Assembly (NCBI GenBank): GCA_030647485.1
Contig: JAUSJT010000003.1
Coordinates: 9,092-73,091, forward strand
Direction of reading: 5' to 3'
Length of the DNA stretch: 64,000 nt
Origin: a bacterium
Lineage (GTDB): Bacteria; Patescibacteriota; Minisyncoccia; Minisyncoccales; UBA10102
In this document: piece after piece, positions 37,421-63,238 of the stretch
How the letters are laid out: each line of letters opens with the position of its first letter
How positions within the stretch are numbered: the stretch's first letter is position 1
Program-made: the position numbers and the translations under genes
Notes under the pieces: model-generated
What the model was told of the DNA's origin: nothing
Seen by the model: only the letters and a program-made list of their open reading frames with translations
Databases searched by the model: none

Positions 37421-38323
37421 ATGAGAATACTTTTAGTGCTTGTGTTTCTCTTTCTTCCTCTTTCAGTATTTGCGCAGATTGCCATCATCAATGAAATCGC
37501 CTGGCCCGTAGAGTCTGCCTATGCGGCAGACCACGGGCTAAAGATGGGAACTGTGATTATTAATGAGGTTGCATGGATGGGGAGTCCAGTTGAAGGTGTG
37601 GACGCAAAGCAGTGGTGGAGATACGAATGGCTTGAGCTTTTCAATGCAAAGGACCAACCCTTGCAGATTGATGGGTGGGCTGTGGATCTGTATAGAGGTG
37701 AGGAACTTTACTTTAAAATTCCCTTAGTAGGGATAGTCCCTGCTTTTGGGTATTTTTTGGTTGGTGCTTCAGATAAGATTCTCCCGCTTCGCGGGATCTC
37801 GCGTAGCGAGACAGGAGTTGATGTGAACTACTCAAACCTCGGAGGTAAATTTTTGAATACTGGCCAGAGGGTTGTTCTATCCAATGCTTCAGGCGTGGTT
37901 GTTGATGAAGTTGATGCAACTTCGGGTTGGCCCGCAGGAGACAACAAAACCAAGCAAACTATGGAGAGGGCCGCAGGTTCTGAGGGCGTATCTGAAGAAT
38001 GGCAGACATCGGCTAAACCAGGGGGAACTCCAAAAGCTCAGAATAGCTCAGGGGTTACTAGAGAAACTGTCAGAGAAATTACAGGTCAAACTAAACCGAG
38101 TTTAGTTAAGGATGAAGTAAAACTTAGTCTGACTAAGGATGAAACAGAAAAAGACCTCTCGCGGTCTTTTCAGTCACGTGTCCCCCTTGTGAATCCTATT
38201 ACCCTTCTTGCGGGGCTTCTGGCTCTGGGGTTTTCTGGGGTTCTGCTGTTGGTGAAGCGCTCTCTGGCGTCTCGGCAGGAGCGTCAGAAGTTGAAACATC
38301 CCGAGAGGAATCTAAGGACTTAA
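37421..38323 (+). CDS. Secreted lamin-tail-domain (LTD) protein with C-terminal TM anchor
   Basis: Signal peptide; INEIAW...EWLELFN LTD signatures in duplicate; C-terminal hydrophobic helix. Confidence 0.65.
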   Translation: MRILLVLVFLFLPLSVFAQIAIINEIAWPVESAYAADHGLKMGTVIINEVAWMGSPVEGVDAKQWWRYEWLELFNAKDQPLQIDGWAVDLYRGEELYFKIPLVGIVPAFGYFLVGASDKILPLRGISRSETGVDVNYSNLGGKFLNTGQRVVLSNASGVVVDEVDATSGWPAGDNKTKQTMERAAGSEGVSEEWQTSAKPGGTPKAQNSSGVTRETVREITGQTKPSLVKDEVKLSLTKDETEKDLSRSFQSRVPLVNPITLLAGLLALGFSGVLLLVKRSLASRQERQKLKHPERNLRT

Positions 38324-40378: not shown

Positions 40379-42886
40379 ATGGCGGACAGTAAAAAGGAAC
40401 AAGCGCTATCTCCCATAGGAAAGATAGAGGGCAGAGAAATCGTGGAGGAAATGAAGGCTTCCTACATTGACTACGCCATGTCTGTTATTGTTGCGCGGGC
40501 TCTCCCTGACGTGAGAGACGGTCTAAAGCCTGTACATCGGAGGATACTCTTTGTCATGCACGAAGAGGGGCTTACTCACGGAGCGAAATTCAGAAAATCA
40601 GCAACAGTCGTTGGAAATACATTAGGACGCTATCATCCGCACGGCGACATTTCTGTGTATGACGCTTTAGTGCGCATGGCGCAGGACTTTTCCATGCGCT
40701 ACCCCTTAATTGACGGTCAAGGAAATTTTGGAAGCGTTGACGGAGATCCTGCTGCGAGTATGCGCTACTCTGAAGCTCGCATGTCCCACATAGGAGAAAT
40801 AATGTTACAGGATATTGAGAGAGAAACAGTAGATCTCGTAGACAACTACGACGGCACAAGAAAAGAGCCTAGTGTGCTTCCTTCTCCCGTTCCCCAGCTC
40901 TTGCTAAATGGAACCCTGGGTATTGCGGTTGGCATGATGACCAACATTCCTCCCCATAACATGGGAGAGGTGCTTGACGCCCTTTTGTATATTATAGAAA
41001 ACCCGAGAGCAACCGTAGAAGACCTTTTTCAGTTTATCAAGGGGCCCGACTTTCCTACAGGAGGCATCATTTACAACAAGCAAGACATTATTGCCGCGTA
41101 TTCTCAAGGCAAGGGTCCTATTGTTATGCGCGGGAAGGCAGACGTTGTAGAAACCGAAAAGCACAACCAGATTATAATCACCGAGATTCCATACGAGGTG
41201 AACAAGTCCACGCTCGTGGAACAGTTTGCAAATCTTGTGCAAGAAAAGAAAATAGACGGTATTCGAGATATCAGAGACGAGTCTGACAAAGACGGATTGC
41301 GTATTGTCTTTGATTTGCAGAGAGACGCCCAGCCCCAGAAGATTCTCAATAGATTGTATAAGTTTTCAGATCTGCAAAAGACCTTCCATTTGAACATGCT
41401 TGCCCTGGTGGACGGCATACAGCCCAAGGTCTTGGCGTTAACCGAAGTACTCCTGTATTTTATAGAGCACAGGAGAAAGGTGGTGGGACGGAGAACGGCA
41501 TATGACTTAAAGAAGGCAAAGGAACGGGAGCACATCTTAGAAGGTCTGTACAAGTGCTTAGCCAAGATTGACGAAGTTATCAAAATAATCAGAGCTTCCC
41601 AGGACCGGGAAGATGCTCTGCGCAATTTGATAAAGCGTTTCAAGCTTACCGAGATTCAGACGAACGCCATATTGGATATGAGGTTGGCGCAGTTGGCAAA
41701 GCTTGAGCGAAAGAAGATAGAAGACGAGTTAAAAGAAATACAGGCAAAGATAAAAGAGCTCTCTGCTATTCTATCTTCTCCAAAGAGAATTGATGGGGTT
41801 ATTAAGAAAGAGTTTGCAGAAACCCGACAGTCATTTGGAGACGAAAGAAAAACCAAGGTTCAAATGCAGGGCATTGGAGAAATCGCGGAAGAAGACCTTG
41901 TCCCCCAAGAAGAGACTATTCTTACGCTTACGCAAGGTGGGTATATTAAGCGCATTAACCCTGCAACGTACAAGCTGCAAAAGCGCGGAGGCAAGGGCAT
42001 AATGGGAATGAAGACGGTTTCAGACGATATTGTGGAGCACTTCCTCTCTTGCAATACTCACGACTCTTTAATGGTGTTCACCGATTCTGGCAAGGTGTTT
42101 CAAACGCCAGTGTATGAAATCCCAGAGGGCACAAGAGTGGCAAAGGGCAGGGGGCTGTTGAACTTTATTGAGTTAAGCAGCCAAGACAAGGTTCTCTCTT
42201 TGTTTGCCTTTGGGAAGTCCGCCAAAGGCGGATCCGCCTTGGGCGGAAAAGACGCGGTACAATACCTAGTCATGATTACAAAAGACGGAATTATCAAGAA
42301 GACTCCCCTAGAGGATTTCAAGAACGCGAGAAAATCAGGACTCATTGCAATGTCTCTCAAAAAAGGAGATGTCTTGCGTTCTGTTCAAAAGAGCACTGGA
42401 GAAGATGAGTTAATAATCACCACAAGAAAGGGGCAGTCCATACATTTTAAGGAGAAAGACGTGAGGTCTATGGGAAGGCCTGCTGCCGGTACTCATGCCA
42501 TGCGTTTAAAGAAGGGAGACGAGGTGGTAGGCATGGACGTGGTGCAAGCTACAAGCTACAAGCTACAAGCTACAAAGTCAGCGTCCTTGTACCTTTTTAT
42601 TCTCATGGAGAATGGGTATGGCAAGAGAACGGACGTGAAGGAATATCGTCTTCAAACCAGGGGAGGGTCTGGGATTAAGACCGCCAACGTCACCCCAAAG
42701 ACTGGAAACCTTGTCTATGCCAAGGTGCTTGGAGGGGTTGAAGAGGATCTTATCGTAATCTCAAGAAAGGGCCAGGTTATACGCACTCCTGTGGACTCCA
42801 TACCCAAGATAAGCCGTTCAACGCAAGGAGTTCGTATCATGCGGCTTGACGAGGGCGATAAAGTTGTTTCTGCCGCATGCCTGTGA
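40379..42886 (+). CDS. gyrA: DNA gyrase subunit A
   Basis: [23 protein letters not shown] active-site region; GyrA box; C-terminal beta-pinwheel repeats. Confidence 0.9.
42545..42577 (+). repeat. Heptanucleotide tandem repeat (caagcta x4 + caaag) inserted in-frame in the gyrA C-terminal domain
   Basis: Encodes [11 protein letters not shown]. The same ctacaagcta motif flanks the gene at 61071-61436. Confidence 0.7.
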
Positions 42887-42900
42887 TACGATAGGTTAAG

Positions 42901-43347
42901 ATGAAAAAGATCCTTTGCGCAGTGTTCTTAGTAGGAGGGATAGCTTTCCTCGGATTTTCGTTTTCTCCTGTGTTTGCCGAACCAAAGGAAGCAGAAGATT
43001 GCCTGGATTATTGTACTTTTCTGGGGAAGAAAGAGATGAAAGAAGGTAAAGAGGTTGAGCTTTCGAAGGCACAGCCGAAAGATAAAACCTGCATTTGCAA
43101 CCCCTTGGGGCAGGGCACAAAGTTTACCGATGTGGTAGACAGAATTCTTAATATTCTCTTCTTTATTGCCATAGCCGTGGCCCCTGTCATGATCATTGTG
43201 GCAGGGTTTAAGTTTCTTACAGGAGGAGGAAACCCAGAAACTCTCCAGGGAGCGCGCCAAATGCTTATATGGACTGCGGTGGGGTTTGGTATTATACTGT
43301 TATCAAAGGGCATTGTGATGATCTTGAGGAGTATTATAGGGTTTTAG
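42901..43347 (+). CDS. TrbC/VirB2-like pilin-family small membrane protein (paralog 1 of 3)
   Basis: Signal peptide, two TM helices, conserved FLTGGGNPE...ARQMLIWTAVG. Confidence 0.45.
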   Translation: MKKILCAVFLVGGIAFLGFSFSPVFAEPKEAEDCLDYCTFLGKKEMKEGKEVELSKAQPKDKTCICNPLGQGTKFTDVVDRILNILFFIAIAVAPVMIIVAGFKFLTGGGNPETLQGARQMLIWTAVGFGIILLSKGIVMILRSIIGF

Positions 43348-43441
43348 TGTTTTGACACCATGATTAGCTTGTGGAACAATCAAGAAAGGTCGAATCTTTC
43401 AAAGTCGCATAACTAAATCAAAATATAAAGAATAACAACAT

Positions 43442-43816
43442 ATGAAAAAGTTTTTTGCAGTATTCCTTATGGCATCGGTTTTGGCGGTTCTTGCACTTCC
43501 CGTATTGGCGGCGGTAGATACCCCAGTAGGTCCCGGTGCAGGATATAGCTTGCCTGTCACCGCACCCATAAGTAGTACCGGAGGACTTATAAAGCTCTTC
43601 GAAGTTCTCACGAACTGGGTTTTTGCTCTCTTTACCTTTCTAGCCGTTATCTTCCTAGTTCTCGCAGCGCTCCAGTTTGTCACAGCAGGCGGAGATGCAG
43701 TAAAGGTTGGAGAAGCGCGCATGAAGCTCATCTGGGCTGCTGTAGGTATTATGGTAGCCTTGGCTTCAAAAGGGTTCATTCCTATAATAGAAAGTCTCCT
43801 TGGAGTAGTAGATTAG
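43442..43816 (+). CDS. TrbC/VirB2-like pilin-family small membrane protein (paralog 2)
   Basis: AALQFVTAGGDAVKVGEARMKLIWAAVGI. Confidence 0.45.
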   Translation: MKKFFAVFLMASVLAVLALPVLAAVDTPVGPGAGYSLPVTAPISSTGGLIKLFEVLTNWVFALFTFLAVIFLVLAALQFVTAGGDAVKVGEARMKLIWAAVGIMVALASKGFIPIIESLLGVVD

Positions 43817-49130: not shown

Positions 49131-49190
49131 GTGATTACTGTAGTCGAAGCATTGATTTTTTGCAATTTGTGGGGTATACAAAGGAGAGTT

Positions 49191-49266
49191 GGCCCTATCG
49201 TCTAGTTTGGTCTAGGACGTCGGGTTTTCATCCCGAAAATCAGGGGTTCAAATCCCCTTGGGGCCG
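49191..49266 (+). tRNA. tRNA-Glu(TTC)
   Basis: Anticodon loop TTTTCAT. Confidence 0.85.
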
Positions 49267-49270
49267 CCTC

Positions 49271-50818
49271 ATGTCTCAAGCATATTACGTGAATGTTTCT
49301 CGAGCTTCAGATCTTCAAGATCCGAAAGAGCGTTTCCTCTATCGGTTTTTTGAAATGCTTCCAGGATTGCTGTCTTTCGGCAGTCTGGGGATTATAGTAT
49401 TGTTCTCATGGCTTTTTCCCATGCTGGTTGCCTTTTTTGTCTTTGGATTCATCATGTACTGGTTGCTTCGCACCGTTTATTTCTCGTTCCATCTGCGTTC
49501 AGGGTACAAGAAGATGAGGGAGCATGAAAAGACAGATTGGATGAAAAAGCTCCTAGACATTCCAAACTGGCAGGATATTTGGCATCTTGTTGTGGTTGTT
49601 GCGTATAAGGAACCTTTCGAAATGGTGCAAGAGTCTCTCCGTGCGGTAGCGAGTTCAGAATATCCTGCAGACAAGCTTTTAGTGGTGCTTGCCCTAGAAG
49701 AGCGCGCAGGAGTTTTAGCAAGAGAAATGGGGGTCGCTCTTGAAAAAGAATTCAAGGATTCTTTCTTTAGATTTTTAGTGACCTCGCATCCTGCCAACCT
49801 TTCAGGAGAAATCGCGGGGAAAGGGTCAAACGAGGCATGGGCAACAAAGGAGGCAAAAGAAAAGATTATTGACCCTTTGAGAATTCCATATGCCCGCATT
49901 ATTGAAACCTCTTTGGACGCAGACACTATAATCTCTCCAGGATATTTGAGCTGTCTTGCGTATCACTATGGTACCGTGCCCAATGCTTCAAAAGCCTCAT
50001 TCCAACCAATCCCATTATTCATCAACAATGCATGGCAGGCAGGAGCCCTGTCTCGCATCTTTTCTTTTTCTGCAACCTTTTGGCAGACCATGAACCAAGA
50101 GCGTCCAGAAAAGCTTATTACTTTTTCCTCGCACTCTATGAGTTTTCAGGCATTGGTTGACGTAGGATTCAAACAGCGGAACGTGGTTGCCGACGATTCC
50201 CACATTTTCTGGCAGTGTTTTCTGCACTATAACGGAGATTACCGAGTGTACCCTCTGTATTACTCAATTCGCATGGATGCAAACGTGGGCAAGAATTTCT
50301 TGGAAACCATGAAAAATATGTACAAACAGCAGCGGAGATGGGCATACGGAGTGAGCGAGATACCCTATTTTTTATTTGGGTTTTTGAAAAACAAGAATAT
50401 ACCTCTTTCACGGAAGATGTCTCTGGCTTTTGAGTTTATTGAAGGGCACTGGTCGTGGGCAACAGCGCCCATTCTTATATTCTTGTCAGGATGGCTTCCC
50501 TTGCTGTTGGGCGGTCAGGCATTCTCTGCAACCCTGGTTTCGTACAACCTTCCCATTTTTACATCCCGTTTGTTAACCCTTGCCATGCTTGGGCTGGTGC
50601 TGTCCGCGTTCATTAGTATTCAGATACTCTCCCCCACAAGGCCGGAGTATAGGAAGTGGCGCTTCGCGGCCACCGCATTCCAATGGGCGCTGTTTCCATT
50701 TACCATGGTTTTCTTTACCGCATTTCCCGCGTTAGACGCCCAAATGCGTTTGCTCTTGGGCAAATACATGGGTTTTTGGACAACCCCAAAGTTCCGGCGT
50801 CCAATCGATTCTGCTTAA
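49271..50818 (+). CDS. Membrane GT2 family processive glycosyltransferase (cellulose/PNAG-synthase-like); ORF extends to 49160 over the tRNA
   Basis: D,D,D and QQRRW motifs; several TM segments. Confidence 0.75.
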   Translation: MSQAYYVNVSRASDLQDPKERFLYRFFEMLPGLLSFGSLGIIVLFSWLFPMLVAFFVFGFIMYWLLRTVYFSFHLRSGYKKMREHEKTDWMKKLLDIPNWQDIWHLVVVVAYKEPFEMVQESLRAVASSEYPADKLLVVLALEERAGVLAREMGVALEKEFKDSFFRFLVTSHPANLSGEIAGKGSNEAWATKEAKEKIIDPLRIPYARIIETSLDADTIISPGYLSCLAYHYGTVPNASKASFQPIPLFINNAWQAGALSRIFSFSATFWQTMNQERPEKLITFSSHSMSFQALVDVGFKQRNVVADDSHIFWQCFLHYNGDYRVYPLYYSIRMDANVGKNFLETMKNMYKQQRRWAYGVSEIPYFLFGFLKNKNIPLSRKMSLAFEFIEGHWSWATAPILIFLSGWLPLLLGGQAFSATLVSYNLPIFTSRLLTLAMLGLVLSAFISIQILSPTRPEYRKWRFAATAFQWALFPFTMVFFTAFPALDAQMRLLLGKYMGFWTTPKFRRPIDSA

Positions 50819-50858
50819 ACTCGGTTTAGGAGTGAAAACTAAACCGAGTTTAAGCAGA

Positions 50859-52976
50859 CTACTCGAGGTGGAGCTTTTCTCTTAGTTCTTGAACCCGTGC
50901 CCTTAATAGCGGGTATTGTTTTAATGCAATATCTTTTTCTAGGATTTCCTGCGCAGTGTTTCTTGCTTCTTGGACTAAGGCAAGGTTGGTGAGCTGCTCC
51001 ATGGCAAAGTCTGGAATGCCCCATTGCTTGGTGCCTGCAAAGTCCCCGGGACCGCGGAGTTTCAGATCTCGCTCTGCCAACAAAAATCCGCTGTCCAATT
51101 CCAATAAGGCGCGAAGGCGCTGGTTTGTCCCATGGGAATTTGATTCGGAAAAAAGAAAGCAGTACGACTGCACATCCGATCTCCCAACCCTTCCTCTGAA
51201 TTGATGGAGCTGGGCTAATCCAAAACGGTCTGCTCCCTCAATCATCATGACTGTTGCGTTAGGAATATCTACTCCAACTTCCACAACAGAAGTGGACACT
51301 AGGACATCTATTTTCTTGAACTTAAACTTTCTCATAACCTCTTCTTTTTCCTTCTGCGCCATTTTCCCGTGAAGCATGCCCACCTTGAGTTTTGGAAATA
51401 TTTCTTTTGAGAGCTTCTCATACTCTTCTTTTACCGCTTTTACTTCCGTTCCTTCGGGAGAATTCTCTGTTTTTTCAATCCTGGGGCAGATGACAAATAC
51501 CTGTTTGCCTTTTTCTACTTCCTTTTTTATAACGCCATAGGTTTGCGCTCGTTCTTGGGGCGCGACTATTTTGGTGATTATCTTTTTGCGCCCCTTGGGG
51601 AGTTCGTCAATGAGAGAGAGGTCAAGGTCTCCATATATAGTCATGGCTAATGTTCGAGGGATAGGGGTTGCAGACATAGATAAGAGATGCGGAATTAGCG
51701 CAGTGCGGTGCAGAAGTTTTGCGCGCTGTTTTACGCCAAAGCGGTGCTGTTCGTCTAATATAACAAGGGCGAGATTCCCGAATTTCACCTTGTCTTGTAT
51801 GAGTGCATGAGTACCAATAAGAATGTCTATGTGTCCTTCCCTTGTTTTCTCTAAAAGCTTTGCCCTTGAGATTTCAATAAAGTCATTGGGAAGTTTGGGG
51901 GAAGAAAAACGGTCTGTCTTTCCCGTCAGCAGCCCAATGGTAACCTTGAATGGAGCTAGCAAGGGCCCCATGGTTTTAAAGTGCTGTTGGACAAGGATTT
52001 CCGTGGGAGCCATACACGCTACCTGATACCCTGCTTTTACCACGGACAAGGCTGCCATTGTTGCCACCACTGTTTTTCCAGAACCTACGTCCCCTTGCAG
52101 CATCCTATTCATGGGACGGGGATTTTCCAGGTCTTTGAGAATATTCCACGCAGACTTCTTCTGGGCAGGCGTCAAAGTAAAAGGAAGCTTGTCAGTGAAT
52201 CTCTTCATAAGTTCTGTGCTTAAGGGAATAGGCGGAGCCTTCACTGACGCTATTTTTCTTCTTTCAGACAGGACAAAAAGCGAGATGAAGAGAAGCTCTT
52301 CAAATGCAAAGCGCTTTTGGGCAAGTTTTGCTGCATTCATGGAATCTGGAAAGTGGACTTGCCACAATGCCTGGGAAAGCGCGGGAAGCTTCTTTGCCTT
52401 TACAAGATCTTCTGGCAAGGAGTCTTTGATATCTTTTAAGCTTGCCAGTACCATTTTAATAATAGACCGCAGCCACCTAGAAGAAACTCCTGCGGTTTCA
52501 GCATATGTGGGAATGATTCTCCCTACGTGAGTGAACTGCCATGACGAAGAATTCGCGTCCTGCACCTTTTCATGCACAGGGCTTGCAAAATATATGCCGT
52601 CTTTGTCTCGGAGAACCTTGCCTGCAACGCATATGTGGTCTCCGGCTTTGAGCGAATCTGCAAGATAGGGTTGCTGGAACCACACGACTTTTATAGCTCC
52701 CGTGCTGTCTTGCAAAAGGGCTTCTGTTACTGAAAACCGTTTCTTAAAGGTTGTTTTTTGCTTTAAGTCTAAGAGCTTGCCTGAAGCGCAGTACGTATTC
52801 CCCTCCTGTATGGTTTTAATAGGGGTGATAACGGAAAGATCCTCGTAAGAACGGGGGAAATGGAAAAGGAGGTCACGTACTGTTGTGATCCCGAGGATTT
52901 GCAATCGTTTCTGATACACTGGTCCTACCCGGGGAACTTCGGAGAGAGGAGTCGTGAAATTCATCTTGGTTTGCAC
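50859..52976 (-). CDS. recG: ATP-dependent DNA helicase RecG
   Basis: Wedge domain plus DEQH helicase motifs. Confidence 0.9.
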   Translation of the reverse strand: MQTKMNFTTPLSEVPRVGPVYQKRLQILGITTVRDLLFHFPRSYEDLSVITPIKTIQEGNTYCASGKLLDLKQKTTFKKRFSVTEALLQDSTGAIKVVWFQQPYLADSLKAGDHICVAGKVLRDKDGIYFASPVHEKVQDANSSSWQFTHVGRIIPTYAETAGVSSRWLRSIIKMVLASLKDIKDSLPEDLVKAKKLPALSQALWQVHFPDSMNAAKLAQKRFAFEELLFISLFVLSERRKIASVKAPPIPLSTELMKRFTDKLPFTLTPAQKKSAWNILKDLENPRPMNRMLQGDVGSGKTVVATMAALSVVKAGYQVACMAPTEILVQQHFKTMGPLLAPFKVTIGLLTGKTDRFSSPKLPNDFIEISRAKLLEKTREGHIDILIGTHALIQDKVKFGNLALVILDEQHRFGVKQRAKLLHRTALIPHLLSMSATPIPRTLAMTIYGDLDLSLIDELPKGRKKIITKIVAPQERAQTYGVIKKEVEKGKQVFVICPRIEKTENSPEGTEVKAVKEEYEKLSKEIFPKLKVGMLHGKMAQKEKEEVMRKFKFKKIDVLVSTSVVEVGVDIPNATVMMIEGADRFGLAQLHQFRGRVGRSDVQSYCFLFSESNSHGTNQRLRALLELDSGFLLAERDLKLRGPGDFAGTKQWGIPDFAMEQLTNLALVQEARNTAQEILEKDIALKQYPLLRARVQELREKLHLE

Positions 52977-52992
52977 TGAGTTTATTGAAGTG

Positions 52993-53064
52993 TGTCCCCA
53001 TCCAGATTCGAACTGGAATTTCAGCCTTCGCAGGGCTGCGCTCTATCCATTGAGCTATGGAGAC
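52993..53064 (-). tRNA. tRNA-Arg(GCG), an unusual anticodon (ACG expected)
   Basis: Anticodon stem CAGCC/GGCTG, loop CTGCGAA. Confidence 0.75.
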
Positions 53065-53114
53065 GAGTAACCTACCTTGTATTTTACTCAAAACGAGATA
53101 TAATTCAAGTCATT

Positions 53115-53203
53115 GGAGAGGTGGCTGAGTGGTTGAAAGCGATACACCGCTAACGTATTAGGGGCTTTAAAACCCCTCGAGGGTTCGAATCCCTCCCTCT
53201 CCG
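53115..53203 (+). tRNA. tRNA-Ser(GCT)
   Basis: Class II tRNA; anticodon loop CCGCTAA (C33 is unusual). Confidence 0.7.
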
Positions 53204-53290
53204 CAACGTAATAAATTTGCTTTGCAAATTTAAACGTTGCTGGGACGTTTAATCTCTGAAAGAAATTATTACGTCCCGCCAATTAGGAAA
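53204..53290 (+). repeat. Family B tRNA-associated repeat, copy 2
   Basis: acgtaataaatttgctttgcaaatttaaacgttgctgggacgtt...ttacgtcccgcc. Confidence 0.55.
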
Positions 53291-53310
53291 AGATACTCTG
53301 CATAACGTAT

Positions 53311-53745
53311 ATGCCAGAAGAACAAGTCAATATTTTCAAGAGAGTCGCAGGGCCTATCATTCATAGATTTCAGATTAAGGATATGCTCCAAGTTATCATT
53401 GGAGCCACAATCCTTTCTATTCCGGTTGCATATACCGGAGAGGTTTGGCAACTGGCAGAGACACTGCCCATGCGCAATATTCTTGGTTTTCTTGGACTTT
53501 CGCTTGTATTCATTTCTCTCTTTGTATATCATCACTATCACCGCGAAGAAACGGAGATGAGGTGGGGAGAGTTTGCAAAGCGAGTACTCTCAACCTATAT
53601 CCTCTCTTTTTTGGTTGTAGCACTCATCTTAACTATGATTGAGCGAGCTCCCTGGGGCGCAGATTGGCTGCTTGCGGTAAAAAGAACAATTCTCGTAGCC
53701 TTTCCCGCTTCAATGAGCGCCGTGGTTGCAGACGTGTTGAAATAA
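53311..53745 (+). CDS. Small polytopic membrane protein, hypothetical
   Basis: 144 aa, three or four TM segments. Confidence 0.5.
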   Translation: MPEEQVNIFKRVAGPIIHRFQIKDMLQVIIGATILSIPVAYTGEVWQLAETLPMRNILGFLGLSLVFISLFVYHHYHREETEMRWGEFAKRVLSTYILSFLVVALILTMIERAPWGADWLLAVKRTILVAFPASMSAVVADVLK

Positions 53746-53748
53746 CGA

Positions 53749-53832
53749 GGAGGGGTCGGATAGTGGTTTATTCCACCAGTTTTGAAAACTGGCGTCCGCA
53801 AGGACTCGTGAGTTCGAATCTCACCCCCTCCG
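53749..53832 (+). tRNA. tRNA-Ser(TGA)
   Basis: Anticodon loop TTTGAAA, long variable arm. Acceptor and T arms identical to tRNA-Ser(CGA). Confidence 0.8.
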
Positions 53833-53990
53833 CAGCGTAATAAATTTTGCTTTAGCAAAATTTAAACGCTGTTGGAACGTTGAAATTTCAAGAGGAAATT
53901 TCTTACGTTCCGCCTTCAGATGATACGTTCAACGCTACTGAGACGTTTAAATTTTCACAGAAAATTTATTACGTCTCGCCTTCTTATGTT
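53833..53990 (+). repeat. Family B repeat, copy 3, with the second hairpin unit duplicated
   Basis: gcgtaataaattttgctttagcaaaatttaaacgctgttggaacgtt...ttacgttccgcc, then a second gagacgtt...ttacgtctcgcc unit. Confidence 0.55.
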
Positions 53991-54246
53991 TTATTACGTT
54001 TATATCATTGAAAGTTTGAAAAATAAATCATTGTATATCGGATATACTGTTGACTTGAAGAAAAGATTCAAAGAACATAACGATGGCAAAAGCTTGGCAA
54101 CAAAACCATTCAGACCATATAAACTTATCTTCTATGAAGCGTTTATTGATAGAAAAGATGCCAAGGCGCGGGAAGTATATTTAAAAAGCGGCTGGGGATT
54201 TAGGAGCATTAAGAAAATGATGGAAAATTATTTCAACGTAAGATAA
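53986..54246 (+). CDS. Small stand-alone GIY-YIG nuclease-domain protein (ORF extends to 53920)
   Basis: YVYIIES...LYIGYT...R..EHN GIY-YIG motif. Confidence 0.6.
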   Translation: MFYYVYIIESLKNKSLYIGYTVDLKKRFKEHNDGKSLATKPFRPYKLIFYEAFIDRKDAKAREVYLKSGWGFRSIKKMMENYFNVR

Positions 54247-54381
54247 GGGCAAAAGAAATTTTTTCATTCTGATTTTTTGACAATAGAAACTCGAAAGGAT
54301 TTCTGTTCCGCTTCAAGTTGACCACGCTTGATTTTCATGGTAGTTTTCCCTTAGCACTACTCAAAAGATGGAGGATTCGCT

Positions 54382-55227
54382 ATGAAGTTCATTCCGCTTG
54401 ATAAGTCGTGGATCATCCGCATGGGTGTGTTGGATCTAATCCACGGCTACTCCGACATTGTTCTTTTCCTTAACACCCAGACAACTTTGTCCGATGACCT
54501 GCTCGCGTTGAAACGAGCCTGCAACGCATGGAATACCGACAGCTCGATTGAAGTCGGCGAGTCTGGTACTCTCTACCGTTTTCTCCAATTTGCCTCTTGG
54601 AAACTCAATCTCAAAAAGAGATTCGTGACCGAAGGCACTTTGAGAGAAAGAAGAATTGGGCAAGACTCATCGATTGTTAACTTGACCCAGCGAGAACTGC
54701 TCGAGTTACCAGATGAGCCGACCTCTCAATGGGCGAGTGCTGCCGTGCTTCTTGGAGACGAGGAGCGCTTGATAGACGCACCCTACAAACTTCGAGTGAC
54801 CTACGAAGCTGTCGACCACTGGCGAAGCCGACGAAGTGAAGGAAAGACCTGGCAGCCAAGAGAAGACCCGACGATCCGTGTCCAAGCTGAAACCTTCGTG
54901 GAGTTGCTTCGAGGTGAAAGGCCGGACTTTGTTCCGCTTCAAGCCGAGGACTACTGCTTTGCACGCATATTCGGTTACATCAGCAGAGAAGAAGGTGCGC
55001 GAAAGTGGCCTAACCTCTCTGGCCACGAGAGCAACCGACTCGAGGAAATGGAGAAGGTGCTAGTAGATGCTTTAGCTGGGCAGGAGATCGCCTCCAGGGA
55101 TCATCGTGTCATCCACGCGATTGTCATGTGGGGATTGGTGAACAAAATCGTGATTAAAGTTCGCTATCCTGACGTGGTGCGTAAGAGCTGGCCGGAATTT
55201 TGGCAGTTCATCGACACGACGAACTAG
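54382..55227 (+). CDS. Hypothetical protein, GC-rich
   Basis: 281-aa ORF with balanced composition; strong SD AGGAGG. Confidence 0.5.
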   Translation: MKFIPLDKSWIIRMGVLDLIHGYSDIVLFLNTQTTLSDDLLALKRACNAWNTDSSIEVGESGTLYRFLQFASWKLNLKKRFVTEGTLRERRIGQDSSIVNLTQRELLELPDEPTSQWASAAVLLGDEERLIDAPYKLRVTYEAVDHWRSRRSEGKTWQPREDPTIRVQAETFVELLRGERPDFVPLQAEDYCFARIFGYISREEGARKWPNLSGHESNRLEEMEKVLVDALAGQEIASRDHRVIHAIVMWGLVNKIVIKVRYPDVVRKSWPEFWQFIDTTN

Positions 55228-55252
55228 CATTGAGCCCAATCGGTAACTTCGT

Positions 55253-55289
55253 GAGCCTCGCACTTCGTTTAGTGAGAGGCTCTTTTTCT
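55253..55289 (+). terminator. Rho-independent terminator
   Basis: gagcctcgcacttcgtttagtgagaggctc followed by tttttct. Confidence 0.7.
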
Positions 55290-55441
55290 AAAATTGAAAT
55301 TTTCATACCTTGCCACAATGTATTGCCTCCCAGTTACAATCTGTGCAAACCCCTTGCTCTAGACTGCTTTTTGTTTGGGTTTTTCAGTCATTTGGGGTAG
55401 TATAATAGTAACGCATTCTATTAATTTCTTGACATGATATA

Positions 55442-56503
55442 ATGAAACTACTTGGTTCTTTTAAATTCCTGCCTCGTAATTCCGTGGGCATTGACATTGG
55501 CACCTCTTCTTTAAAGGTAGTGGAGCTTTCACGATGGGGTTCAAGAAGAACTCTGAAGAATTATGGGGAGATTCAGGCATCTCGCCTCTATGATAAACCA
55601 TTTAGGACGTTTGAGAAAAACACCCTCATGCTTTCCAGTCAAGACATTGCGAGAGGGGTGCGCGCCATTTGTCAGGAAGCAAAGATAGAAACAAAAGAGG
55701 CGGTATTCTCCATCCCTGATTTTTCTTCCTTCTTCACCTACTTTGAGCTTCCTGCGATGAGTAAAGAAGAGCTTCCTCAGGCAGTGCAGTACGAGGCGAG
55801 AAAGCATGTGCCGCTCCCTTTTGCCGAAGTGACCTTTGACTGGCAAGTTATTGAGAAGCCTTCCCCTGGCGCAAAAACACCGCTCAAGATCCTTCTAGTT
55901 GCGGTGCCCAACGAAGTGATAAACCAGTACCAGGAGATTGCGCAGGGTTCGGGACTTCGGCTGTCCGCGCTTGAAGCAGAAGTATTCGGCTTGATACGGT
56001 CTTTTTTCAGAGAGGAGAAATCCCCTGCTGCCGTGCTGGATATCGGGGCGCAGACAACCACCATCAACGTTGTATGGAAAGGACAGCTGCGCAACTCCCA
56101 CGGCATAGATATTGCAGGAAACGGTTTCACAGAACGGATTTCCCAATCGTTGCTCATTGATTTTTCCAAAGCGCAGGAATTAAAAAGCCAAAAGGGGCTT
56201 TTGAGCCCCGATATCGTGAGCATCCTGTCTCCTCTTATTGATATGATTGTGATGGAGGTACAGAACATTGCGCAGAGCTTTGAAGAGCGGGAAGGAGCAA
56301 GGATAGAGAAGATTGTTCTAGGAGGAGGATCGGCAAGAATGCCAGGGTTGAAAGAATACTTTGAAAAAAATCTTGCAAAGGAGATTGAGATCCTAGATCC
56401 CTTCCGAAGCCTATTTGTTCCCCCTATCTTAGAGCAAACCTTAAAAGAGATGGGGCCTTCGTATGCCGTAGCAGTAGGTATGGCATTACGGGGATTAGAG
56501 TAG
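55442..56503 (+). CDS. pilM: PilM (locus 2)
   Basis: Actin-like PilM; homologous to 14094-15215. Confidence 0.85.
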   Translation: MKLLGSFKFLPRNSVGIDIGTSSLKVVELSRWGSRRTLKNYGEIQASRLYDKPFRTFEKNTLMLSSQDIARGVRAICQEAKIETKEAVFSIPDFSSFFTYFELPAMSKEELPQAVQYEARKHVPLPFAEVTFDWQVIEKPSPGAKTPLKILLVAVPNEVINQYQEIAQGSGLRLSALEAEVFGLIRSFFREEKSPAAVLDIGAQTTTINVVWKGQLRNSHGIDIAGNGFTERISQSLLIDFSKAQELKSQKGLLSPDIVSILSPLIDMIVMEVQNIAQSFEEREGARIEKIVLGGGSARMPGLKEYFEKNLAKEIEILDPFRSLFVPPILEQTLKEMGPSYAVAVGMALRGLE

Positions 56504-56507
56504 TTCT

Positions 56508-57050
56508 ATGGTAGAAATTATTCCAAAGCAAAAATTAGAGTATCCCGTCTGGACTCAAGCTCTCTTTTTTGGGTCCATGCTTTTCCTGTTGGTCGCGATA
56601 GGAGGGTTTTTCCTTACTCTCCAGCTCCAAGGCAGGGCGCAGAAAGAATTGGAAAGGATCCAGGGAGTTTTGGCGCAAGGAAAAACGCCAGAGGAGGTGC
56701 TCCAAGAGCAATCCATATTCCGCTACAAAGATAAGTTCAATGATTTTGCATCACTTGCGGCAGAGAGAAATGACGTGCGCCCCGTGTTTGAGTTTTTGGA
56801 AGCATACACGCATTACAGGGTTGTGTTCACGACGATTAATCTAGAACCAAAGCTTCGCACGCTCAAACTCGTAGGCGCCACCCAGGATTTCAGAACATTG
56901 CAAGAGCAGATGGCCATTTTCCAAAACAGGGAAGAACTTACGGGGCTGACCCTTTCCAATATCGTGCTGGGAGAAAAGGGGCAGGTCGTATTCCAGCTGG
57001 GAATGGGGCTTGCCTCAAGTCTTTTGACTTCCTCAATCTCAAACCCATGA
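56508..57050 (+). CDS. pilN: PilN-like (locus 2)
   Basis: Single TM; position in operon. Confidence 0.65.
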   Translation: MVEIIPKQKLEYPVWTQALFFGSMLFLLVAIGGFFLTLQLQGRAQKELERIQGVLAQGKTPEEVLQEQSIFRYKDKFNDFASLAAERNDVRPVFEFLEAYTHYRVVFTTINLEPKLRTLKLVGATQDFRTLQEQMAIFQNREELTGLTLSNIVLGEKGQVVFQLGMGLASSLLTSSISNP

Positions 57051-57559
57051 ACAGATTCTTTTTAAGTATTGTTCTTATCGGAAGCTCTCTCATCTTTGGG
57101 GTCTTTGTGGCTTTGCCGCGCTTTCAGGAATTTTCCGCGGTCTCCAAAGAGCTGAACGTGAAACGGGCAGAATTGGAAAGCAGAGAAAGCTATTTTGCCC
57201 ATCTCAAAGATCTTCAAGATCGCATCAATTCAGAAGAATTGGTTGCAAAGATTGACGCTGCAATACCTAACGACCCCCAGCTTCCCGCGCTCCACGATTT
57301 TCTGCAGTCTACAGCTGCAGGGTCTGGTTTGTCGTTGCGCTCTATTACGGCTTCACAGGGCGCTTTACCCCAGGGGGCACGCCTGCAGCGCGTTAGCGCG
57401 TCTTTGCAGCTCGGAGGATCATATGAAGGGTTAAAAGTGTTTCTTTCCAGCTTATTGCGCGCTTCCCGCATGACCGATGTAGAGTCTATCAATTTTTCCA
57501 GTCCCCAAGCAGGAACGGGATTCGTGTTTAACATTCGCACAAGCTCATATTCGTATTAA
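57047..57559 (+). CDS. pilO: PilO-like (locus 2)
   Basis: Single TM; position in operon. Confidence 0.6.
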   Translation: MNRFFLSIVLIGSSLIFGVFVALPRFQEFSAVSKELNVKRAELESRESYFAHLKDLQDRINSEELVAKIDAAIPNDPQLPALHDFLQSTAAGSGLSLRSITASQGALPQGARLQRVSASLQLGGSYEGLKVFLSSLLRASRMTDVESINFSSPQAGTGFVFNIRTSSYSY

Positions 57560-57564
57560 ATCAC

Positions 57565-57843
57565 ATGGCGTTCACCCTATTACAAAGAAAAAAAATGCAG
57601 CAGGGGCTTATCCTAGTCCTTATCGCAGTTCTCTTTATCACGGCTACCGTGCTTTGGTTAGGGTTCTTTCAGAAGGGGCCATCTCTTGCAGGGCCTCAGG
57701 GCACCATGAGACCCGCGCTCCAGCAAATTGAGATAAACTTTAATGTGCTGTCTCTTCCTCTGTTGCAAGAGTTGAACGCTCCTGCAGAACCGGTGCTGGA
57801 ACCTTTGATCAAGGGGAGAAATAATCCGTTCCTTCCTTTCTAG
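57565..57843 (+). CDS. Small membrane protein in the PilP position
   Basis: 92 aa, one TM; position in operon. Confidence 0.4.
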   Translation: MAFTLLQRKKMQQGLILVLIAVLFITATVLWLGFFQKGPSLAGPQGTMRPALQQIEINFNVLSLPLLQELNAPAEPVLEPLIKGRNNPFLPF

Positions 57844-57846
57844 CCC

Positions 57847-59598
57847 ATGAATATTATCCAGATATTAGTACAAAAGAATATTATCGATAAAGAAAAGGCT
57901 GGCCTTTTGCAGGAGGAAGCTCGGTCTTCTGGATTAAAGCCAGAAGAGGTTATCTTAAAAGAAAAGATTGTCGCAGAGGATTTTCTGTTTCAGCTTAAGG
58001 GCGAAGCGTTGAAGATGCCTCTGGTGCAAGTGGCGCCCAAGGATATTCCTTTAAAGGTGTTGGAGCTTATCCCTGAGGATTCTGCAAAGTACTACCGCAT
58101 GATTCCCTTTGCAAAGCAGGATGGTACCTTGGATATTGGCATGGTATATCCTGAAGACCCCAAGGCCCAGGAAGCCTTAAAGTTTCTTGCGAGGCAAGGG
58201 AATTTTTCTTCCAGGGTGTCTTTGATTTTGCCTTCTACCCTTGATTCTTTGCTCCGCCAGTACCGAACGCTCAAAGAGGGAGGCACTCAAGCCTTGCAGG
58301 AACTTGAAGAAGAGATCAAAAGGGGGTGGGAAGACCGTGCTCCTTCGGGACTGGCCGAGCTTCAGCGTTTGGTAGAGGAGGCGCCCATTACAAAAATGGT
58401 TGCGGTGATTCTTAGGAACGCGGTGGAAGGGAAGGCGTCCGATATCCATATCGAGCCCACAAAAGATAGCTTGAGGGTGCGCTTTCGTTTGCTCGGCGAG
58501 CTGTATTCTTCCCTTCTTTTGCCAAAGCGTATTCATGGCGCAATTATTTCTCGAGTTAAGATTCTAGCAAATCTGAAGATTGATGAGGCGAGGATTCCTC
58601 AAGACGGGAGATTCTCAACAACGATAGACGAGAAAGCTATTGACTTTCGCGTTTCAACCTTCCCGACTGCTTTGGGAGAGAAGGTTGCCATACGCGTTCT
58701 GGATCCTGACGTAGGATTGAAGAGTTTTGAGAAGTTAGGCCTGGAAGGAACAAACTTGTCATTGGTGAAGGAGGCCATACAAAGGGCGTTCGGCCTCATT
58801 CTTGTAACCGGCCCCACTGGTTCTGGGAAAACGACAACCCTGTATGCCATTTTGCGCGTGCTGAATAAAGAGGGGACGAACATTGTGAGCCTGGAAGATC
58901 CGGTAGAATACCTCATTGAGGGCATTAATCAATCTCAGGTAAGGCCGGAAATTGGGTATGATTTTCCTCAGGGACTGCGCCAGATCTTAAGGCAGGATCC
59001 AGACGTCATCATGGTAGGAGAGGTAAGGGACGAGGAAACCGCTTCCTTGGTTATTCACTCCGCGCTTACTGGGCATATCGTGTTTTCCACCCTGCATACG
59101 AATAATGTCATTGGGGTGATCCCAAGGTTGCTGGATATGGGGGTGGACAGGTACCTTATCTCTCCTTCTCTGGCTCTTGCCATATCCCAGCGATTGGTTC
59201 GGCGCCTGTGCGACCGGTGCAAAGAAAAGCAAGACCCCGCAAAAGGAATTGCAGATCTTATTGAGAAAGAAATGGAGAGGGCTCCCCTGAACGTTCAGAA
59301 GAGAGCGGCGCTTGTTCTTGGAGCTAAGGAAAAGGGAGTATCTATCTTTATTCCAAAAGGGTGCAAGGAGTGCGGAGGGTCTGGGTTCTCGGGACGCATT
59401 GGAATCTTTGAAATTTTGAAGATGACCCCAGAACTGCAGGAGATTGTCCTGAAAGATCCTTCGGAGACAAACATTGCAAAAGAAGCTAAAAGGCAGGGCA
59501 TGGCAACCATGCGCCAAGATGGCATTGTGAAGGTCTTGGACGGGGTCACCACCATAGAAGAGGTATTACGAGAAACAAGAGAAGAGCATAACCTATGA
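57847..59598 (+). CDS. pilB: Type IV pilus assembly ATPase PilB/GspE (locus 2)
   Basis: Walker A GPTGSGKTTT; C-terminal CxxC...CxxC zinc site. Confidence 0.9.
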   Translation: MNIIQILVQKNIIDKEKAGLLQEEARSSGLKPEEVILKEKIVAEDFLFQLKGEALKMPLVQVAPKDIPLKVLELIPEDSAKYYRMIPFAKQDGTLDIGMVYPEDPKAQEALKFLARQGNFSSRVSLILPSTLDSLLRQYRTLKEGGTQALQELEEEIKRGWEDRAPSGLAELQRLVEEAPITKMVAVILRNAVEGKASDIHIEPTKDSLRVRFRLLGELYSSLLLPKRIHGAIISRVKILANLKIDEARIPQDGRFSTTIDEKAIDFRVSTFPTALGEKVAIRVLDPDVGLKSFEKLGLEGTNLSLVKEAIQRAFGLILVTGPTGSGKTTTLYAILRVLNKEGTNIVSLEDPVEYLIEGINQSQVRPEIGYDFPQGLRQILRQDPDVIMVGEVRDEETASLVIHSALTGHIVFSTLHTNNVIGVIPRLLDMGVDRYLISPSLALAISQRLVRRLCDRCKEKQDPAKGIADLIEKEMERAPLNVQKRAALVLGAKEKGVSIFIPKGCKECGGSGFSGRIGIFEILKMTPELQEIVLKDPSETNIAKEAKRQGMATMRQDGIVKVLDGVTTIEEVLRETREEHNL

Positions 59599-59975
59599 GA
59601 ACAAAGATTGTGTTAGTTGAAGACGATCCGCTATTGATAGATATTTATTCCACCAAGTTCAAAGAGGCGGGCTTTGAGGTTTCAGTGGTAGACCGGGGAG
59701 ACGCGGCTCCGTCGTTCGTAGCAAAAGAAAAGCCGGATCTCGTGGTCTTGGATATTGTGCTTCCCCAGAAGGACGGTTGGGATATTTTGAGAATCGTAAA
59801 GTCCAATGAGAAGACAAAAAACGTCAAGGTTGTCATCCTGTCAAATCTTGGCCAGAAAGAGGAGATTGAAAAAGGCATGGCGCTGGGAGCCGCAGGGTAT
59901 CTTATCAAGGCGCATCACACGCCAAGCGAGGTCGTCAGGGAAATTAAGAAAATTCTTGCAGGACCCCAAGCATAA
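59595..59975 (+). CDS. Stand-alone response regulator receiver domain (paralog of 2446-2808)
   Basis: VLVEDD...DLVVLDIVLP...K receiver motifs. Confidence 0.85.
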   Translation: MRTKIVLVEDDPLLIDIYSTKFKEAGFEVSVVDRGDAAPSFVAKEKPDLVVLDIVLPQKDGWDILRIVKSNEKTKNVKVVILSNLGQKEEIEKGMALGAAGYLIKAHHTPSEVVREIKKILAGPQA

Positions 59976-61045: not shown

Positions 61046-61067
61046 GTTGTAGGTTGTAGCTTGTAGG
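61044..61067. repeat. Left tacaagcta-type repeat flanking the four-helix-bundle gene
   Basis: gttgtaggttgtagcttgtagg; the inverted copy lies at 61427-61460. Confidence 0.6.
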
Positions 61068-61070
61068 AAC

Positions 61071-61436
61071 ATGGGAATACAGAGCCACAGAGATTTAATA
61101 GTTTGGCAAAAAGCAATGGAGTTAGTGACTTTTGTATATGAAGCGACGAATGCATTTCCTAAATCAGAATTATATGGACTTACATCACAGATGAGGAGAT
61201 CGGCAGTCTCCATACCTTCTAATATTGCAGAAGGCAGAAGAAGAGGTTCTCGAAAAGATTTTCGAAACTTTCTCATAAATGCGTATGGATCTGGCGCAGA
61301 ACTTGAAACCCAAATTGAAATAGCAAAACGGATTCAGATTGCTCCAGATGCCGATTACAGGCATATTGATGAACTTCTTATGGAGTGTATGCGTATGCTG
61401 AATAAGATGATTTCAAACCTACAACCTACAAGCTAA
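61071..61436 (+). CDS. Four-helix-bundle protein (23S-rRNA-IVS/Avd-like family)
   Basis: 121-aa basic protein; LIVWQKAMELV...IAEG motif typical of this family. Confidence 0.6.
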   Translation: MGIQSHRDLIVWQKAMELVTFVYEATNAFPKSELYGLTSQMRRSAVSIPSNIAEGRRRGSRKDFRNFLINAYGSGAELETQIEIAKRIQIAPDADYRHIDELLMECMRMLNKMISNLQPTS

Positions 61437-61460
61437 TTCCTACAAGCTAGAATGAAGTTT
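61427..61460. repeat. Right tacaagcta-type repeat flanking the four-helix-bundle gene
   Basis: acctacaacctacaagctaattcctacaagctag. Confidence 0.6.
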
Positions 61461-62657: not shown

Positions 62658-62677
62658 TTTTCCACATTGTACTTGAC

Positions 62678-63163: not shown

Positions 63164-63238
63164 TAACAAGAAAAACGTCGTAGAATATATATAGATACAT
63201 AATTCAAGGTCGATACATATAGTAGGAGATATAACGTT

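Follow-up and report, generated by a model that had tools for sequence, protein, structure and literature searches.

The stretch of DNA analysed here (the window: 64,000 nucleotides (nt) of contig JAUSJT010000003.1, positions 9,092 to 73,091, assembly GCA_030647485.1, lineage Patescibacteriota) carries the gene gyrA for DNA gyrase subunit A and, further downstream, a type IV pilus operon reaching from pilM to the pilins (55442-63739). Its host is a bacterium of the candidate phyla radiation (CPR), since the best matches of GyrA, PilT and the small protein discussed below are found in Candidatus Wildermuthbacteria and other Parcubacteria. Tandem arrays of 7-nt units occur at both places: one array lies in frame inside gyrA, and two inverted arrays, called arms below, bound a small gene for a four-helix-bundle (4HB) protein situated between pilT and pilC. 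The gene with its two arms will be called the cassette. A sequence-only reading had proposed that the common motif is either the end or target of a small mobile element or a hypermutable repeat.

The gene gyrA (40379-42886, forward strand) encodes a protein of 835 amino acids (aa) matching the Pfam domain DNA_topoisoIV (E=9e-161) and six DNA_gyraseA_C repeats; its closest homologues, from Candidatus Wildermuthbacteria/Parcubacteria, are 93% identical. On the same strand, positions 42545-42577 are occupied by the solo array (CAAGCTA)x4 plus CAAAG, to which Tandem Repeats Finder (TRF) assigns period 7, 4.4 copies, 100% matches and a score of 62. These are perfect head-to-tail copies beyond chance, as is characteristic of a microsatellite. 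The nucleotide sequence, TRF and the translation of the open reading frame (ORF) agree that the array is in frame, as had been claimed: it encodes 11 aa, contains no stop codon and leaves the host ORF intact. It is written in the orientation that reads CTA, all three frames of which are stop-free. Exact period-7 arrays were found twice in the window vs 0.00 expected from Markov shuffles, and exact tandem arrays of the other periods between 4 and 12 were not enriched there in the same comparison. The sequence CTACAAGCTA occurs 13 times in the window with at most one mismatch (2.75 expected; 0 of 100 shuffles reached 13), and 9 of these 13 matches are concentrated in three spots, namely the gyrA array and both flanks of the 4HB gene. 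The motif is not distributed at random, and GyrA orthologues do not have the inserted sequence in common.

The position of the array in the protein was examined in an alignment of GyrA with its best 120 homologues (69-93% identical) and in an AlphaFold2 model of the C-terminal domain. In the alignment, the array coincides with a loop separating two conserved strands in a blade of the C-terminal domain, DEVVGMDVV and a segment of 14 aa; this loop is rich in insertions and deletions, varies in length and sequence in every lineage, and has 92 distinct sequences of 8-32 aa in the 121 proteins. In the model (mean predicted local distance difference test score, pLDDT, 77), the repeat peptide corresponds to residues 229-239 of the domain and forms an excursion between the strands 222-228 and 244-249, with a block pLDDT of 60 vs more than 90 on either side. 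Hence, the array does lengthen GyrA without breaking its frame, but the site is a long variable loop and not, as first thought, a compact blade. No inverted partner of the array was found within 250 nt and no RNA structure is predicted at it (z=0.2). It is a coding microsatellite that is tolerated by the protein and lies outside the cassette; because it is solo and has neither an inverted partner nor a predicted structure, it is not a cassette end or target.

In most Parcubacteria relatives, this surface loop of the C-terminal domain holds some peptide derived from heptamers. Loop peptides with a 7-residue period occur in many GyrA relatives (e.g. NHKSQITNHK, QKSKIKNQN, NPKSEARNPKQ, NVKGQMSNVKS) and are heptanucleotide arrays translated in frame; the rate of amino-acid matches in the loops is 0.139 at lag 7 vs 0.05-0.08 at other lags. 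The loop DNA reads CGAAATC CGAAGCA CGAAATC CGAAACA in the closest relative (L001), consists of AAATCTC units in L004 and shows only a degenerate CAAnnnn register in L006 (CAACCAA CCAATGG CAAAGAA CAAGTAG), so that even gyrA genes with 84-86% nucleotide identity have different heptamers in the loop. The loop is a long-lived, fast-evolving heptamer microsatellite within an essential gene, and the array of the window, being perfectly homogeneous, is therefore young. An assembly artefact was considered as its source and rejected, because the frame is intact and the independent assemblies of relatives carry heptamers in the same loop. Other insertions were seen in and around the gene as well. A second indel-rich, low-complexity loop (42217-42245, around a stretch of 12 aa) differs from L001 and L004, and a partly palindromic 30-nt insertion, TCCCGCTTCGCGGGATCTCGCGTAGCGAGA, is present at 37782-37811 of the window and absent from L001. 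Among the close GyrA homologues P0006, P0036, P0078, P0079 and P0082, several are 1000-1300 aa long with intein/Hint domains (PF14890, PF14528), and in P0082 a different loop contains the additional sequence GPASPAKRG; inteins and this insertion together indicate that gyrA hosts several kinds of insertions in this clade.

The cassette lies exactly between two pilus genes, as had been stated, and all its parts are on the forward strand. The pilT-type ATPase gene (59975-61045; Pfam T2SSE) ends inside the left arm, AGGAGT TAGGTTG TAGGTTG TAGCTTG TAGG (61037-61067), which contains its last codon and its TAG stop (61043-61045), the latter being the TAG of the first heptamer unit. The 4HB gene follows at 61071-61436 with 121 codons; the last left-arm unit, TAGGAAC, supplies an AGGA 5-8 nt ahead of its ATG. 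The right arm, AACCTAC AACCTAC AAGCTA ATTC CTACAAGCTAGA (61416-61451), covers the final codons and the TAA stop of the 4HB gene and ends with a gap of 0 nt at the base preceding the ATG of pilC (61452-62657; T2SSF platform protein, Pfam T2SSF E=3e-62). The inverted repeats noticed earlier on both sides of the gene are thus real; their limits have to be corrected, since the left one starts already at about 61037 and includes the pilT stop, and the right one also contains the end of the 4HB gene. The arms face each other as TAGGTTG TAGGTTG TAGCTTG TAGG (61043-61067) and AACCTAC AACCTAC AAGCTA ATTC CTACAAGCTA (61416-61449), with a best inverted pair of 26 nt at 88% complementarity, and both the minimum free energy and the centroid fold of 61025-61470 pair them (z=-4.1) in a stem of about 27 bp.

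The 4HB protein belongs to PF05635/TIGR02436, the '23S rRNA intervening sequence protein' family (S23p), with 132.1 bits for PF05635 (cut-off 33.8; residues 7-112 on profile positions 1-106 of 106) and 129.4 bits for TIGR02436 (cut-off 24). The family assignment made earlier is correct in this part, but the additional assignment to Avd, the accessory protein of diversity-generating retroelements (DGRs), fails the thresholds of both Avd models (PF22296, 32.1 bits vs 40; NCBIfam DivGenRetAVD, 28.5 vs 80), although a distant kinship is visible (PF22296 E=1.7e-7; PHROG 'Avd protein of DGR' E=1.9e-8). The nearest solved structure is 2GSC, XCC0516 of Xanthomonas (E=1e-23), followed by 2RLD (E=5e-4). 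By sequence, the protein is related to a solved pentameric four-helix bundle and may itself be pentameric. Exact look-ups of this protein and of the window's PilT had no match on record. About half of its best 120 homologues end in ..LQATS* or ..LQPTS*, i.e. in CTACAAG or CTACAAC units read in frame.

No promoter-like or terminator-like site was found in 61037-61452, hence the cassette is probably read within the pil transcript. In the Pfam scan of all ORFs in 49160-63739, an RVT domain was not among the matches, which comprised pilus genes, RecG, GIY-YIG and a glycosyltransferase; hence, in agreement with the sequence-only reading, there is no reverse transcriptase within about 10 kb of the cassette; the scan also gave no transposase within 10 kb. 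A direct repeat of the template/variable type was not reported around the cassette, the PADLOC search for defence systems had no match, and the window contains no rRNA, the Rfam gathering search having returned only 20 tRNAs. Since neither reverse transcriptase nor rRNA is nearby, the cassette represents neither a DGR nor a 23S rRNA intervening sequence (IVS) proper. Elsewhere in the window, several T4SS-pilin-like ORFs follow gyrA (42901-43816), and the 20 tRNA genes in 64 kb include a tRNA-Ser adjoined by an ORF of 108 aa for a GIY-YIG nuclease (53920-54246). Two tandem copies of a 66-nt hairpin-forming repeat (53862-53988) precede and overlap this ORF. It was considered as another heptamer-flanked inserted gene and rejected, because its repeats are 66-nt hairpins of another kind and not heptamers; a similar stand-alone GIY-YIG gene is found at a different location in the relative L004.

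Distribution of the cassette

In two relatives, L007 and L008, the same pilT/pilC slot is filled by the cassette, with 4HB proteins 89% and 79% identical to that of the window. The slot is empty in L216 and L218, where the pilC ATG stands directly after the pilT stop (TAA-ATG) and PilT is 79-80% identical, and in L217 it holds a solo array alone (CTAAAAA CTAAAAA CTACAAA CTAAAAA). PilT ends in ..LARS* or ..LARN* in the cassette bearers, and in ..LAR*(TAA) and ..LARN*(TAA) in two relatives with abutting pilC. With full, solo-array and empty states at one junction, the cassette is insertion-polymorphic. Moreover, a 70%-identical 4HB gene with the same arm type lies between the genes for AhpC (peroxiredoxin) and an aminotransferase in six contigs (L010-L015). 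Because orthologous and related 4HB genes carry the same arms in different slots, the arms travel with the gene, and the same element is seen at different sites with empty sites in relatives, as is expected from a mobile element. The proposal that the motif marks the end of such an element is therefore appropriate for the cassette, which is complete, missing or represented by a solo array alone at one junction and occupies a second slot, but not for gyrA, where the array is neither end nor target. Number and type of the units differ even among orthologous cassettes, and in L007, L008 and L010 the left arm is kept while its units turn over. Together with the different heptamers in gyrA of relatives, this bears out the alternative part of the proposal, a fast-changing repeat; both loci, gyrA and the pilT-pilC junction, are polymorphic among relatives. 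Directly after its cassette, L007 contains an ORF-less hairpin of the same two arms (ctaggaattaggctgtagctggtagcttgtaggg / tcctacaacctacaagctaattcctacaagctag; L007:4361-4459), with a folding energy of -34.3 kcal/mol (z=-5). In-frame arrays, of differing units, are present in the prepilin peptidase genes of L007 and L008 as well.

A metagenome scan with the 4HB alignment yielded 80 loci with proteins 48-67% identical to that of the window, 79 of which were tested for arms. Arm complementarity exceeds all 20 shuffles in 63 of the 79 loci, and the arm score has a median of 30 vs 14 for 94 control ORFs of the same loci, only 1% of which reach 30. Consistently, the flanks of 4HB genes match themselves at lag 7 with a rate of 0.43 upstream and 0.40 downstream vs about 0.27 at other lags. 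The unit varies from locus to locus, yet the two arms of each locus are complementary (e.g. TAGTAGT/ACTACTA, (TAGCGTA)x7/ACGCTA, AGGCAGT/CTGCCTA, GTGATTA/TAATCAC, AGGGGCC/GGCCCCT), and inverted 7-nt arrays exist in nearly all 80 loci. The median arm is 31 nt long; about 12 nt separate the left arm from the start codon, and 49% of the right arms start inside the 4HB ORF. TAG is found 164 times on the sense strand of left arms vs 24 times antisense, and 56% of the left arms have stops in all three frames, as results within three units whenever a 7-nt unit contains a stop. The ORF upstream of the cassette ends with TAG in 38 of 47 cases vs 38% among long ORFs of the same loci, and the right-arm end and the downstream start are at most 15 nt apart in 37 of 54. 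About 85% of the cassettes are co-oriented with both neighbours, in genomes where gene co-orientation is high anyway. Cassettes inside rRNA were looked for among the 80 loci and dismissed, as flanks are coding-like throughout save one side of L205; this judgement rests on the coding-like flanks and not on an Rfam or rRNA search.

Beyond these metagenomes, tblastn found PF05635 relatives in 42 records among 72,556 plasmids, almost all from heterocystous or other cyanobacteria, the group in which heptameric repeats are classically known. In the six plasmid loci examined, the 4HB gene is accompanied by adjacent heptamer arrays, with arms such as GGTGACA/CTGTCAC in Anabaena sp. 90, GGAGATA/TATCTCC in Picosynechococcus and CTCCTGC on a Gemmatirosa plasmid (Gemmatimonadota), some of the arrays being direct or one-sided instead of inverted. 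Three of the six genes lie inside CRISPR-Cas operons, between cas6 and cas4 or cas10 and cmr3, on plasmids of Anabaena sp. 90 (L221), Picosynechococcus PCC 7003 (L223) and Pseudanabaena galeata (L224). Viral contigs provided 16 loci, and most of the 11 examined show inverted arms like other cassettes. Whole cassettes were also seen nested in large ORFs for Eco57I/MmeI-type (PglX-like) methyltransferases (L225:3-3986, L227:876-3992, L229:79-1617, L162:1414-5367, L167:1620-3839). Relative to the 4HB ORF, the host frame is frame +2, and it crosses the whole cassette without a single stop, vs 9-14 stops in frame +1 of the nested cassettes and an average of 7.6 in frame +2 across 87 4HB genes; hence, the 4HB gene and the PglX-like gene overlap in two frames. 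L225, L227 and L229 have one common insertion point and different arms, and L162 and L167 are interrupted at another position.

Solo arrays and their units

Scanning of genomes for a minimum of three CTACAA[G/C] units gave at least 120 loci, and several genomes contribute many of them. Among the matches listed, such arrays occur in Pseudomonas, Alcanivorax, Vibrio, Saprospiraceae, cyanobacteria, Saccharibacteria and Parcubacteria, and ORFs of 200 aa or more contain 31 of 126 arrays, each of them in the CTA orientation. There they encode LQATSYK or LQPTTYN in frame in isoleucyl-, valyl- and leucyl-tRNA synthetases, topoisomerase I, an SMC-family ATPase, EngA and glycosyltransferases (GT4), both in CPR bacteria and in Gammaproteobacteria. 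The only gyrA among the listed array loci (L060) carries no array in the gene itself. An Uhrbacteria gene following a 4HB cassette (L026:2979-3872) contains three different in-frame arrays, CTACCCA x4, CTACAAG/CTACCAG and CTACAAG x4; judged from its N-terminus it may encode a Lgt-like membrane protein. In a Parcubacteria genome, a heptamer hairpin stands directly upstream of groEL (L023:1440-1560), and in Xanthomonas campestris the GGGAATC repeat #16 lies between groES and groEL (Rehm et al. 2015 supplement, PMC4692102), which indicates that the same operon spacer is used in distant phyla.

The density of heptamer arrays within 160 nt of a 4HB gene is about 20-fold that elsewhere (62 arrays vs 36; 98 loci, 418 kb). 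In addition, solo arrays share their unit with the arms of the resident cassette (at least 12 of 14 positions) in 9 of 33 cases vs 1.2 expected from cross-locus permutation; the window provides one of the nine, and three of them could be distant arms that belong to neighbouring cassettes. The window also contains a second heptamer family. A solo array, CGAAATC CGAAGCA CGAAGCA CGAAATC CGAAACA (4562-4600, forward strand), is located at a gene junction, where ORF 2805-4559 stops and ORF 4556-5935 has its start region, and an array of CGAAAT-type units (8844-8874, reverse strand; TRF period 7, 4.4 copies) occupies the spacer of ORFs 8133-8801 and 8883-10106. The exact composite 18-mer CGAAATCCGAAGCACGAA of the first (4562-4579) has no further occurrence in 224 loci except in the gyrA loop of L001-L003 (L001:12153-12170). 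Its presence at an intergenic site here and in a relative's gyrA loop suggests copying from one site to another.

Possible origins of arrays and cassette

The well-supported description given above can be read in several ways. We lean, with limited assurance, towards the view that the gyrA array and the cassette are two forms of one heptanucleotide-repeat system, consisting of an IVS-like selfish cassette and of dispersed, slippage-prone arrays. The mechanism that we tentatively propose for it begins with a selfish PF05635 gene bounded by inverted 7-nt arrays (TAGGTTG/TAGCTTG on the left, CAACCTA/CAAGCTA on the right), which would have inserted exactly at the junction of pilT stop and pilC start. 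In the pil transcript the arms would pair to the stem of about 27 bp and close off the 4HB ORF, as in S23p-bearing 23S rRNA IVS, and by analogy with RNase III processing they might be cleaved. A stem-enclosed ORF is the architecture of the S23p IVS, from which we infer an IVS-like element in an mRNA operon spacer. The arrays themselves would grow, shrink and switch their unit by slipped-strand mispairing, and a copying step may place solo arrays of the cassette's unit at other sites of the same genome.

Several observations weigh against this interpretation. The mismatches between arms comprise 67 of the G:U type on the sense strand vs 86 of the A:C type; with no G:U excess, selection on an RNA stem is not favoured over symmetry at the DNA level, and arm complementarity, which is only about 82%, may be maintained by concerted evolution, or at the DNA level, instead of by RNA selection. 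Some cyanobacterial and Gemmatirosa loci have direct flanking arrays or an array on one side alone. No target-site duplication is definable at the cassette beyond a possible TAG at both borders, and the cassette encodes no insertion enzyme. Furthermore, a 4HB ORF lies within 300 nt at only 1 of the 120 listed CTACAA[G/C] loci, so that the view of every array as the mark of a cassette was rejected, and 24 of the 33 solo arrays do not match the local cassette; hence, arrays can exist independently. Finally, the degenerate CAAnnnn register of the L006 loop, ending in CAAGTAG, indicates that the array of the window could have been born in place.

Birth in place is also assumed by a rival reading, coincidence combined with local slippage, according to which the gyrA array arose from a proto-repeat in an already heptamer-like loop and became homogeneous through replication slippage, unrelated to the cassette 18.5 kb away, and the common unit is just a generally favoured heptamer, CTACAAG/CTACAAC, that arises repeatedly. 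The L006 loop is in the same register with a 3' flank homologous to that of the window, most loop peptides of the relatives fit one AAATCNN family as in-place turnover predicts, and the abundance of CTACAAS arrays without nearby 4HB genes in many phyla as well as the majority of unmatched solo arrays would be expected. However, random local birth does not lead one to expect the same unit in frame in unrelated housekeeping genes of distant phyla. A unit sharing between solo arrays and resident cassettes about 7-fold above the permutation expectation also speaks against coincidence, as does the 18-mer CGAAATCCGAAGCACGAA at an intergenic site of the window and in a relative's gyrA loop. We regard coincidence as a rather unlikely explanation, if one to be taken seriously. 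A DNA-based origin, in which the cassette is a derivative of the miniature inverted-repeat transposable element (MITE) kind, the arms are terminal inverted repeats for a transposase encoded elsewhere, the 4HB gene is a passenger and solo arrays are excision footprints, would account for the inverted ends, the precise presence or absence at the pilT/pilC junction, the same cassette in another slot, the ORF-less hairpin after the L007 cassette and the solo array in the L217 slot. It is nevertheless improbable, because the arms are wholly different between cassettes with 50-70% identical proteins and would not all be recognised by a single transposase; they are tandem arrays of variable length instead of fixed terminal repeats, and neither a definable target-site duplication nor a transposase within 10 kb exists. 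The footprint model fails also for the array in the essential gene gyrA, since the TAG-rich arm of a full cassette would truncate GyrA.

CPR bacteria and cyanobacteria are rich in DGRs, and the distant relation of the 4HB protein to Avd (PF22296, PHROG) could suggest a retroelement, in which the protein acts like Avd together with a reverse transcriptase encoded elsewhere and the arrays result from slipping reverse transcription and integration of the cDNA. Against this speak the missed Avd thresholds, the lack of a reverse transcriptase within about 10 kb on either side and of a visible template/variable repeat pair, and the annotated neighbours at L007-L015 and the plasmid loci, which are ordinary operon genes, though no reverse transcriptase search was aimed at the 4HB loci; such an origin is very improbable. 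Just as improbable is a regulatory device of the host, with the arms forming a hairpin for RNase III or for translational coupling in the pil operon and the 4HB protein being a domesticated pilus regulator. Genomes with 4HB proteins of only 79-89% identity have indeed kept the cassette in one and the same slot, and the stem of the cassette would bring the pilT stop and the pilC start together. But L216 and L218 do without it, with pilT and pilC directly coupled, and like cassettes sit in unrelated operons (AhpC/aminotransferase, cas6/cas4, cas10/cmr3) and in PglX-like methylases.

The view of one heptanucleotide-repeat system can be extended further, in that PF05635 proteins and heptanucleotide arrays may constitute one previously unrecognised genetic system across bacterial phyla, which we consider unlikely on the present data. 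Under this extension, a pentamer of the 4HB protein would bind arrays of about five 7-nt units, in line with the median arm of 31 nt, and would promote or maintain them; the cassette and arm-derived arrays would colonise operon junctions and coding loops while host genes are kept intact. The outward-facing TAG stops, the arrays open in all frames and the in-frame cassettes nested in PglX-like genes could then be understood as features protecting the host.

Relation to known elements and significance

The nearest relatives of the cassette are the 23S rRNA IVS with an S23p ORF known from Leptospira and Coxiella burnetii, which in Coxiella form a 28-bp stem cut by RNase III (PMC4990558). Both contain a PF05635 ORF within terminal inverted repeats, with a stem of 28 bp in Coxiella vs about 27 bp predicted here, both are sporadic among relatives, and neither encodes another protein. 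In contrast, the IVS are inserted in helix 9, 25 or 45 of 23S rRNA, while the cassette of the window resides in an mRNA operon spacer, its arms are arrays of 7-nt units, and excision by RNase III would be assumed only by analogy. The DGR protein Avd belongs to a distantly related four-helix-bundle fold family (PMC10053308), but the window protein scores below the Avd thresholds, with no reverse transcriptase nearby and no template/variable pair seen.

On the side of the arrays, heptameric simple sequence repeats (SSRs) have been known since 1990 from the short tandemly repeated repetitive (STRR) sequences of cyanobacteria, and in 2007 an over-representation of them was reported for many bacteria (PMC4692102); nevertheless, no detailed literature on them existed in 2015 (Rehm et al. 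2015, PMC4692102). Besides STRR, GGGAATC of Xanthomonas and GGGGA(T/C)T of Nostoc belong to this group (Rehm et al. 2015, PMC4692102). They resemble the arrays described here as tandem 7-nt units that lie mostly in spacers of co-directional genes and often form convergent pairs able to fold into stem-loops (PMC4692102), whereas the sequence of the unit differs from that of the window. The GGGAATC repeat #15 of Xanthomonas overlaps the start of XCC0516 (Rehm et al. 2015 supplement, PMC4692102), i.e. of the closest solved homologue of the window 4HB protein. The studies on heptamer repeats discuss G-quadruplexes, find no link to mobile elements and omit S23p/PF05635 (PMC4692102). Our literature search found no work that links PF05635, S23p or four-helix bundles to heptamer repeats, nor heptamer repeats to CPR bacteria, although many subscription papers were outside this search and a prior description is possible in both cases. 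The finding is an instance of a broader, apparently undescribed module that builds on the known IVS-type S23p elements and heptameric SSRs.

Two further classes of repeats resemble the gyrA array. Rickettsia palindromic elements are reportedly in-frame selfish repeats in protein-coding genes, with palindromes of about 100-150 bp, and are similar in being dispersed in frame at tolerant surface positions of conserved, even essential proteins; they are not tandem heptamers, however, and have no dedicated gene associated. Contingency-locus microsatellites, for example the heptanucleotide repeats of Haemophilus, likewise consist of short tandem units prone to slippage, but the gyrA array lies in an essential gene, where a change by one unit shifts the frame and only a change by three units (21 nt) keeps it. 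Because a one-unit change would abolish the frame of this essential gene, a role in on/off switching is implausible.

We know of no function of the PF05635 family, to which S23p and the relatives of Avd belong, outside of DGRs. The present data tie heptamer arrays and PF05635 genes together in CPR bacteria, cyanobacteria, a Gemmatimonadota plasmid, viral contigs and Xanthomonas. If the proposed relation is true, heptamer repeats would obtain a testable origin, which may help to explain the excess of 7-base repeats represented by STRR, the Xanthomonas repeats and those of CPR bacteria. The concept of the rRNA 'intervening sequence' would then extend to mRNA operons and even to the interiors of protein genes. 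Moreover, the relation would provide a source of in-frame low-complexity insertions in essential proteins such as GyrA, aminoacyl-tRNA synthetases and topoisomerase I, and such in-frame heptamer insertions would matter for the annotation and the alignment-based phylogeny of CPR bacteria.

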